This document shows positions 9,379-9,543 of a stretch of DNA of 64,000 nt, one piece after another. The notes under the pieces were generated by a model. That model was given only the letters and a program-made list of their open reading frames with translations. It was not told the origin of the DNA and made no database searches. Numbering within the stretch: position 1 is the first letter of the stretch; every line of letters starts with the position of its first letter. The position numbers and the translations under genes are program-made. This stretch comes from Escherichia coli O127:H6 str. E2348/69 (GTDB lineage: Bacteria > Pseudomonadota > Gammaproteobacteria > Enterobacterales > Enterobacteriaceae): NCBI RefSeq assembly GCF_000026545.1, contig NC_011601.1; one strand, given 5' to 3'.

Positions 9379-9524
9379 AACAGACCCGAAGAAAATGAAA
9401 TATAAGAGAAGATCAACGGGTGAGGAAAAAGTTCAAAAAATCGCTGCCGGGGAGGAAGGAAACTACCGGATGGAAAGAGTCCCCCTAAAGCAGACTGACA
9501 GACATCACAAATCCCCGGGTGGGG

Positions 9525-9543
9525 ATTTGTGTATAAGAGACAG
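9525..9543. repeat. IS terminal inverted repeat, outside-end type
   Basis: Reverse complement CTGTCTCTTATACACAAAT; contains a DnaA-box-like TTATACACA. Confidence 0.8.

Follow-up and report, generated by a model that had tools for sequence, protein, structure and literature searches.

The outside-end hairpin of ISEc13: a possibly vestigial form of a terminator predicted in its IS50-group relatives

The catalogued insertion sequence (IS) ISEc13, of the IS50 group, has its outside, transposase-proximal end at positions 9504–9543 of a 64,000-nucleotide stretch of Escherichia coli O127:H6 str. E2348/69 (contig NC_011601.1; the whole stretch is referred to as the window). ISEc13 itself and its IS50-type end design are already known. 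Immediately inside this end lies a perfect palindrome, which a first-pass annotation had taken for a hairpin that limits the translation of read-through transcripts entering from outside. Comparison with related elements indicates that the family would block read-in by terminating transcription and not by blocking translation. The ISEc13 hairpin appears, on balance, to be a weakened and possibly vestigial intrinsic terminator of the ancestral family type, which probably still terminates or pauses read-in transcription to a small extent.

The features on which this reading depends are the following (ORF, open reading frame).

7994..9543, minus strand: ISEc13 insertion sequence, IS4 family, IS50 group, disrupting dgoD (100% DNA identity and annotation)
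8005..9378, minus strand: tnp, a 457-aa DDE transposase, the sole ORF of the element (ORF and domain searches)
9525..9543, minus strand: outside end (OE) 19-mer CTGTCTCTTATACACAAAT, matching the IS50 OE CTGACTCTTATACACAAGT at 17 of 19 positions
9528..9536, minus strand: DnaA-box-like 9-mer TTATACACA at OE positions 8–16, shared with the IS50 OE
9506..9531, minus strand: OE-proximal hairpin CACAAAUCCCC-ACCC-GGGGAUUUGUG, homologue of the family terminator stem (inverted repeat and fold)
9443..9505 (±3 nt), minus strand: extra segment of ~62 nt found only in the ISEc13 lineage (alignment against relatives with 71–77% identity)
9431..9442, minus strand: ancestral T-run fused to a TTGAAC −35-like hexamer (9431–9436), GATTTTTTGAAC, in the invariant TTTTTGAA alignment columns
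9505..10329, minus strand: disrupted dgoD′ ORF, continuing across the OE and the whole hairpin to a UGA at 9505–9507, at the 3′ edge of the hairpin stem

The palindrome (CACAAATCCCC/ACCC/GGGGATTTGTG at 9506–9516 and 9521–9531) pairs perfectly at 11 positions around a loop of 4 nt, and folds into a stable hairpin of −18.6 kcal/mol, compared with −7.9 ± 2.2 kcal/mol for shuffled versions (z −4.9; none of 200 was as good). Its 5′ arm overlaps OE positions 13–19 and 4 nt of the DnaA-box-like 9-mer. In these respects the first-pass annotation was accurate, and every sequence feature that it described is present where it had placed it; the 8-bp direct repeat flanking the element and a palindrome at the inside end (IE), both described below, were not part of it.

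A covarying hairpin and T-run in related elements

Relatives of the ISEc13 transposase were collected at E ≤ 1e-20 (1,332 proteins), giving 80 genomic loci at 41–57% identity and three closer ones at 71–77%. Both ends were extracted from 49 elements, and the counts below were taken on 41, 42 or 44 distinct ones. A hairpin (−11.6 to −25.9 kcal/mol) starts at OE position 13–19 in 28 of the 41 distinct OE regions, with 4–9 T and then TTGAAC behind it. The stem sequences vary widely among relatives while the pairing is maintained. A covariance model comprising the end, the hairpin and the T-run aligned 37 relatives (41–77% protein identity) at 46–76 bits, and the closest relatives (Enterobacterales, 77%; Salmonella, 73%; Serratia, 71%) all show the canonical form of hairpin plus T-run.

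Covariation was counted on the model-based alignment; in a MAFFT alignment the hairpin was out of register. Paired bases occupy 98.4% of the cells, and compensatory changes occur in 9 of the 12 pairs (90 cells), a result reached by none of 500 shuffles. Sliding one partner by a single column lowered the pairing to about 60%, and slid controls did not exceed 63%. A covarying G+C-rich stem with a T-run on the transposase-sense strand, placed upstream of a promoter-like hexamer, argues for an intrinsic terminator facing transcription from outside. A terminator scan called the homologous hairpin in one relative (L002) and in a relic of the element in E. coli K-12, which is described below.

Short inverted repeats are common (11 are listed in 1.75 kb). 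That the OE-proximal palindrome is one of these and has no meaning is barely credible: the shuffled versions did not fold as well, and chance is already contradicted by the homologous hairpins of 37 relatives, with their compensatory changes.

One relative (L018) comes from a 1.5-kb contig binned to a metagenome-assembled genome of the Sedimentisphaerales (Planctomycetes). The element is typical of gamma-proteobacteria, and the placement is probably a binning artefact. The tail of its hairpin is mutated to TTTGTGAAC, as in ISEc13.

The ISEc13 hairpin and alternative readings

In ISEc13, the stem is G+C-rich, with all 11 pairs perfect, and has a G+C core of 4 pairs against 6–10 in the relatives. 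The stem is not followed at its 3′ edge by an unbroken U-tract; the sequence there reads GGGGAUUUGUGAUGUCU. The terminator scan did not call this hairpin, a negative that is not decisive, as the corresponding hairpin of relative L083 was missed because three T were counted into its stem. With filters off, the covariance model aligned 9504–9543 at 34.8 bits, below the range of the relatives. In this alignment the 8 outer pairs (AAAUCCCC/GGGGAUUU) are retained, ACCC stands in place of the loop and the four inner pairs, and the tail reads GGGGAUUUGU--GAU. A d-score of the d'Aubenton Carafa 1990 type was above zero for 25 relatives, −8 for the full ISEc13 hairpin and +10 for a short form of it (tail score 4.05).

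The extra segment separates the hairpin from the conserved T-run GATTTTTTGAAC. It holds an imperfect second hairpin (9444–9493) that ends 3 nt short of a run of six U. No homologue of the segment was found outside the ISEc13 lineage by short-word BLAST against the window and ~100 loci, and a scan of 7800–9800 against Rfam (E ≤ 1) matched no RNA family, in the segment or around it. The second hairpin and its U6 were considered as a substitute terminator and rejected (d = −5, below threshold; not conserved in the K-12 relic), although, lying 60 nt further in, they may add some termination effect.

The order of events can be approached through the K-12 relic (locus L089, 1801–1997; MG1655, between rluA and yabQ/yabP), which is 78% identical to ISEc13 over its first 184 nt and includes a frameshifted fragment of the transposase gene. 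In ~1,700 E. coli records, an ISEc13-like relic is found at this chromosomal location. The K-12 relic carries the extra segment and also AAATCCCCGAGTCCGGGGATTTTTTGTTT, i.e., a hairpin with an intact T-run. Since both are present in the relic, the insertion appears to have come first and the loss of the proximal U-tract later. The segment of the relic is bracketed by an imperfect 9-bp direct repeat, GATTTTTTG...GAATTTTTG. The idea that the segment is an insertion flanked by a target duplication, of which the GATTTTTTG/GAATTTTTG repeat would be the trace, was dropped, as neither ends nor a donor could be identified.

On this comparison, the stem of ISEc13 was shortened by loss of its inner four pairs, and ~62 nt were inserted between the stem and the T-run. 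At a later step, the proximal U-tract changed from UUUUUUG to UUGUGAU (UUUGUGAUG; in DNA, TTTTTTG to TTGTGAT). The new GUG pairs by chance with CAC in the end, and the stem was thereby extended to its present 11 bp.

A number of points weigh against the view that this hairpin is a weakened terminator. Termination is a prediction in every family member. The alignment on which covariation was counted is fitted to the model structure, so that the pairing is somewhat inflated, the raw sequences showing the same pattern. The d-score is our own implementation of the formula, and serves for ranking only. By that score the short form UCCCC-ACCC-GGGGA followed by UUUGUGAUG is marginally positive as a terminator, and to call the hairpin weak and not dead is a matter of judgement. 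Copies of ISEc13 are nearly invariant here (ten were inspected), so that selection on the hairpin cannot be read from their variation; the divergent copies are pseudogenised relics, and variation among copies is likewise uninformative in this respect. Finally, a perfect 11-bp stem is well kept in ISEc13, of which there are 30 copies per genome, and its upkeep could reflect a current function other than the decayed one.

Some of the same observations would fit a hairpin that is a fully effective and roughly symmetrical bidirectional terminator, in which the 11-bp stem offsets the imperfect U-tract and, with UUUGUG on both sides, transcription is stopped both when it reads in from dgo and when it runs outwards on the antisense strand. 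The stem is stable and perfect (−18.6 kcal/mol, z −4.9), the short form has a marginally positive score (+10, tail 4.05), and the hairpin was unchanged in all ten copies inspected. There is also a precedent in IS200, where a bidirectional Rho-independent terminator at nt 12–34 protects the element from impinging transcription (PMC4513863). We consider this reading unlikely, given that the U-tract is broken after 3 U, the G+C core has only 4 pairs where relatives have 6–10, the scan does not call the hairpin, and the model score is 34.8 bits against 46–76. In addition, dgoD′ is translated through the stem to its UGA, which would hinder the hairpin from forming on coupled transcripts.

The earlier proposal of fold-back inhibition was not supported. 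According to it, structure in read-through transcripts blocks translation of the transposase, while native transcripts lack that structure. The hairpin would indeed occur in read-in transcripts only, and fold-back inhibition in IS10 and IS50 was reportedly established by Davis, Simons and Kleckner in 1985, Krebs and Reznikoff in 1986, and Schulz and Reznikoff in 1991. In the IS10/IS50 device, upstream RNA pairs with the ribosome-binding site. The ISEc13 hairpin is self-contained and lies away from the ribosome-binding region, the AUG at 9378 following 128 nt downstream, and in folds of 184-nt and 241-nt read-in leaders it pairs solely with itself. On average, the start region is unpaired with essentially unchanged probability (0.54–0.55 in read-in and 0.58 in native transcripts), weak evidence as the IS50 control was flat too. 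The accessibility test is insensitive, and the stronger argument against fold-back is the comparative one, that in relatives the hairpin has a T-run and sits upstream of the promoter, the signature of a terminator. Fold-back inhibition by this hairpin is thus highly improbable, and a weakened terminator remains the preferred reading.

The element, its locus and its ends

The copy in the window (7994–9543) is 1,550 bp long, and copies in E. coli E2348/69 and in further strains match it at 1,550 of 1,550 positions (100%). The name ISEc13 is taken from the RefSeq label of these matching copies, 'IS4-like element ISEc13 family transposase'. Near-full-length ISEc13 is found in ~870 of 5,426 complete E. 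coli genomes, and at 30 places in E2348/69. In the window it interrupts the dgo genes, in the order dgoR-dgoK-dgoA-dgoD′::ISEc13::′dgoD-dgoT. The dgo genes and the transposase gene share a strand, so that outside transcription and translation would enter this copy through the OE. Other features of the element are as follows.

7986..7993, unstranded: left target-site duplication TGCATGGG, 8 bp (direct reading and script)
9544..9551, unstranded: right target-site duplication TGCATGGG, 8 bp (direct reading and script)
7994..8012, plus strand: IE 19-mer CTGTCTCTTGATCAGATCT, identical to the IS50 IE at 19 of 19 positions
8003–8006, 8008–8011 and 8016–8019, unstranded: three Dam (GATC) sites (read directly)
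8005..8007, minus strand: TGA stop codon of the transposase within the IE repeat, 12–14 nt from the tip (ORF 9378..8005)
7996–8008 / 8014–8026, unstranded: IE palindrome GTCTCTTGATCAG / ATCTC / CTGATCAAGAGAC, 13 perfect pairs (inverted-repeat list and fold)
9407..9414, minus strand: putative IS50-type −10 position, TCTTCT (9407–9412) with a single GATC (9411–9414) (homology with IS50 P1)
9399..9404, minus strand: alternative −10 candidate TATATT (sequence)

Target duplications in the IS50 subgroup are 8–9 bp long (PMC2266710, Table 1), and the 8-bp TGCATGGG repeat falls inside this range. Terminal repeats of the group begin 5′-CT and have the consensus CW------Y---CA-A--W- (PMC2266710, Table 1), to which both ends of ISEc13, CTGTCTCTTGATCAGATCT and CTGTCTCTTATACACAAAT, conform.

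The transposase belongs to the same group. Matches to Pfam Tnp_DNA_bind (70.1 bits, cut-off 24; 1.3e-19), Pfam DDE_Tnp_1 (30.9 bits, cut-off 23) and NCBIfam transpos_IS4_3 (514 bits, cut-off 160) are above threshold; Pfam Dimer_Tnp_Tn5 scores slightly below it (24.1 bits, cut-off 26.7), and the phmmer alignment to the Tn5 transposase still reaches residue 453 of 457. Tn5 transposase structures align end to end with the protein (E 6e-84, ~39% identity). This supports the assignment of the element to the IS50 group, as do its ends, which are almost identical to those of IS50. In an alignment of 20 sequences (ISEc13 and 19 relatives), D93, D193 and E323 are invariant, as are Y316, R319, E323 and K330. 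The protein therefore has the DDE residues together with Y-(2)-R-(3)-E-(6)-K, the motif by which the IS4 family is defined (PMC2266710). Codon 52 (9223–9225, minus strand) is Gln52 (CAG) and aligns with Met56, the start of the IS50 inhibitor protein. An IS50-type inhibitor starting at the homologous position seems to be absent from ISEc13.

The DnaA-box-like 9-mer noted at the right end, TTATACACA at 9528–9536 (minus strand), fits the consensus TTATNCACA. Matches to the bare consensus are not rare (6 in the window, ~2 expected); for the 16-nt OE core, the window has a single occurrence against an expected 0.03. The weight of the box comes from its position, which is homologous to an experimentally defined site in IS50, and not from statistics. 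A DnaA site in the Tn5 OE/ME and the dependence of Tn5 transposition on dnaA are documented (PMC3347997, citing Yin and Reznikoff 1987). Elsewhere in the window, at 62420–62534, two consensus matches (TTATCCACA and TTATACACA) lie ~100 bp apart on opposite strands; judged from sequence, they may mark a region close to the dgo locus that is genuinely regulated by DnaA.

Across the family, the two ends differ consistently. The OE fits the DnaA consensus TTATNCACA in 27 of 44 distinct members and the IE in none of them, and a GATC within the first 30 nt is found in 41 of 44 IEs and in none of the 44 OEs. This difference is carried by positions 10–12 (ATA in the OE, GAT in the IE). As one transposase must use both ends, the maintenance of two end variants over 40–50% protein divergence fits selection by host factors, and the family-wide asymmetry is consistent with such selection. 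On the other side, conservation of the DnaA box is inseparable from that of the transposase-binding site, and in 17 of 44 relatives the box departs from the consensus. A Tn5-like input of DnaA and Dam to ISEc13 is plausible from homology and from the conservation seen across the family.

At the IE, the several GATC sites of the left end are present at 8003, 8008 and 8016; two are within the 19-mer and the third is 4 nt further inward. The stop codon of the transposase (8005–8007) lies inside the terminal repeat, as had been pointed out by comparison with IS50, in which the layout is ATC AAG ATC TGA TCAAGAGACAG. Both in IS50 and in most relatives, the stop codon starts 14 nt in from the end of the element.

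The promoter of ISEc13 has been tentatively placed by homology with IS50 P1, as a consensus promoter scan of the element called none. The IS50-type layout has a weak promoter at a set spacing from the hexamer; in the form TTGAAC-N18-TC(T/A/C)GAT overlapped by two GATC sites, it is present in 28 of 44 relatives (GATCNGATC); IS50 itself reads CGGAAC-N18-TCTGAT, with CGGAAC starting at nt 31, and its P1 promoter is regulated by Dam at two GATC sites (PMC4265352). In the ISEc13 clade, the −10 position is TCTTCT or TCTCTT with one GATC, compared with two in those 28 relatives.

The IE palindrome is formed by the IE itself and, as its inner arm, the final tnp codons (K-S-L-D-Q). It is identical in the relatives at 71–77% identity, and at least 9 perfect pairs are present in 24 of 42 distinct relatives (among them L002, L083, L086 and L087). 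At the 13th pair, L002 shows a swap from G:C to C:G. Codons of the inner arm vary little, Ser being TCT in 88% and Leu CTT in 84% of elements, whereas other conserved Leu, Ser and Arg columns of the same alignment use 2–6 codons each (usually 4–6), the commonest at 20–69%. This bias towards TCT and CTT indicates that the inner arm is constrained at the nucleotide level. No T-run follows the IE palindrome in either direction; it may act as a 3′ stabiliser of the transposase mRNA, as a barrier to antisense read-in or as a site in the DNA. A second synonymous-site anomaly occurs ~40 nt from the IE, at the codons for I-L-E-G-Y (alignment column 516), where Leu is CTT in 89% and lies within the conserved CCTTGAAGG, which suggests another nucleotide-level element near the IE.

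Target choice and comparison with other elements

Empty sites were reconstructed from flanks with an 8–12 bp duplication. In 16 of 19 distinct insertions of relatives, the midpoint of the duplication falls on a G+C hairpin apex (offset 0 in 14, 0.5 in 2); its length is typically 8 bp where the loop is even and 9 bp where it is odd. Many of these apex sites are flanked by an A-run and, on the opposite side, by a T-run, and so resemble host intrinsic terminators or REP-like palindromes (REP, repetitive extragenic palindromic); the orientation of the element relative to the T-run of the target is mixed. For ISEc13 itself, 6–7 of 10 copies in one E. coli genome (GCA_045344535.1; L093–L102) show the apex pattern. 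The window copy runs counter to it, lying inside the dgoD coding sequence at a target without a hairpin.

The hairpin-apex targets also bear on another explanation, in which the OE palindrome acts at the DNA level, as a cruciform or protein site modulating access of the transposase or DnaA, or as a mimic of the target. The family targets CCC-N8/9-GGG hairpin apexes resembling the ISEc13 hairpin, the 5′ arm overlaps the 19-mer bound by the transposase as well as 4 nt of the DnaA box, and the IE is palindromic too. That the stem sequences are free to vary while pairing is kept points to a structure and not to a sequence-specific protein site. The strand-specific T-run of the relatives would have no role in such an arrangement, and no nested insertion into the hairpin was seen in the loci examined. 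We regard a role of the palindrome in the DNA as improbable.

If the hairpin is instead descended from a terminator, target choice would explain why a portable terminator is carried. Insertion into a host terminator would destroy it and expose the element to read-in from one or both sides, and the element's own terminator, directly inside the OE, would restore insulation ahead of the transposase promoter. We tentatively propose, with some doubt, a large clade (ISEc13 and ISPlu9- and ISPpr3-like elements, in Enterobacterales, Vibrionales and Alteromonadales) that combines integration at hairpin apexes, many of them host intrinsic terminators, with a portable, covarying terminator and an IE palindrome constrained at synonymous sites, and in which the expanded ISEc13 carries a broken insulator. 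Each insertion would then make good the loss of the terminator that it disrupts, and the transposase gene would be insulated from the neighbours on either side. The broken insulator of ISEc13, with ~30 copies in enteropathogenic E. coli (EPEC) E2348/69, may couple transposase expression to host transcription.

IS50/Tn5 resembles ISEc13 in its IE (19/19, with two GATC and the TGA), in its OE (17/19, with TTATACACA), in the DDE/YREK residues and the Tn5-type DNA-binding domain at the N-terminus of the transposase, and in a −35-like hexamer separated by 18 nt from a −10 position with GATC. It differs in the transposase (~39% identical), in the distance of the start codon from the end (93 nt in IS50, 166 nt in ISEc13) and in lacking a hairpin and T-run between the end and the promoter, where the best local hairpin has d = −45. 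ISEc13 has one promoter GATC and not two as in IS50, and an IE palindrome that IS50 lacks. IS50 relies on translational occlusion of read-through transcripts. Its relatives would thus have met the problem of read-in with a terminator, a different device for the same purpose. IS10/Tn10 shares the purpose, insulation from external promoters, as well as Dam control of end and promoter (PMC3347997). Its mechanism is sequestration of the ribosome-binding site by RNA pairing, and no such pairing is predicted in ISEc13.

IS200 is like the relatives of ISEc13 in having a terminator in its first tens of nucleotides, upstream of the transposase promoter. It is unlike them in its HUH, Y1 transposase and unrelated sequence; its terminator is established by experiment where the present one is predicted, and in ISEc13 the U-tract has been lost. 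ISEc13 would be a natural variant with a damaged insulator, and as such bears on polar effects in the genomes of EPEC and on how neighbouring transcription drives IS activity there. A test case is offered by the dgoD::ISEc13 copy, since the galactonate-inducible dgo operon reads into the OE. The window is otherwise of little import, its DnaA and Dam features being inherited from a well-studied design; the comparative by-products are more useful.

IS1397 and ISKpn1 target the loops of extragenic palindromes, and some group II introns insert after terminators. These elements, members of the IS3 family and retroelements, respectively, are like the ISEc13 family in inserting at palindromes or terminators. 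In the ISEc13 family, the duplication of 8–10 bp falls exactly on the apex and the preference is not absolute.

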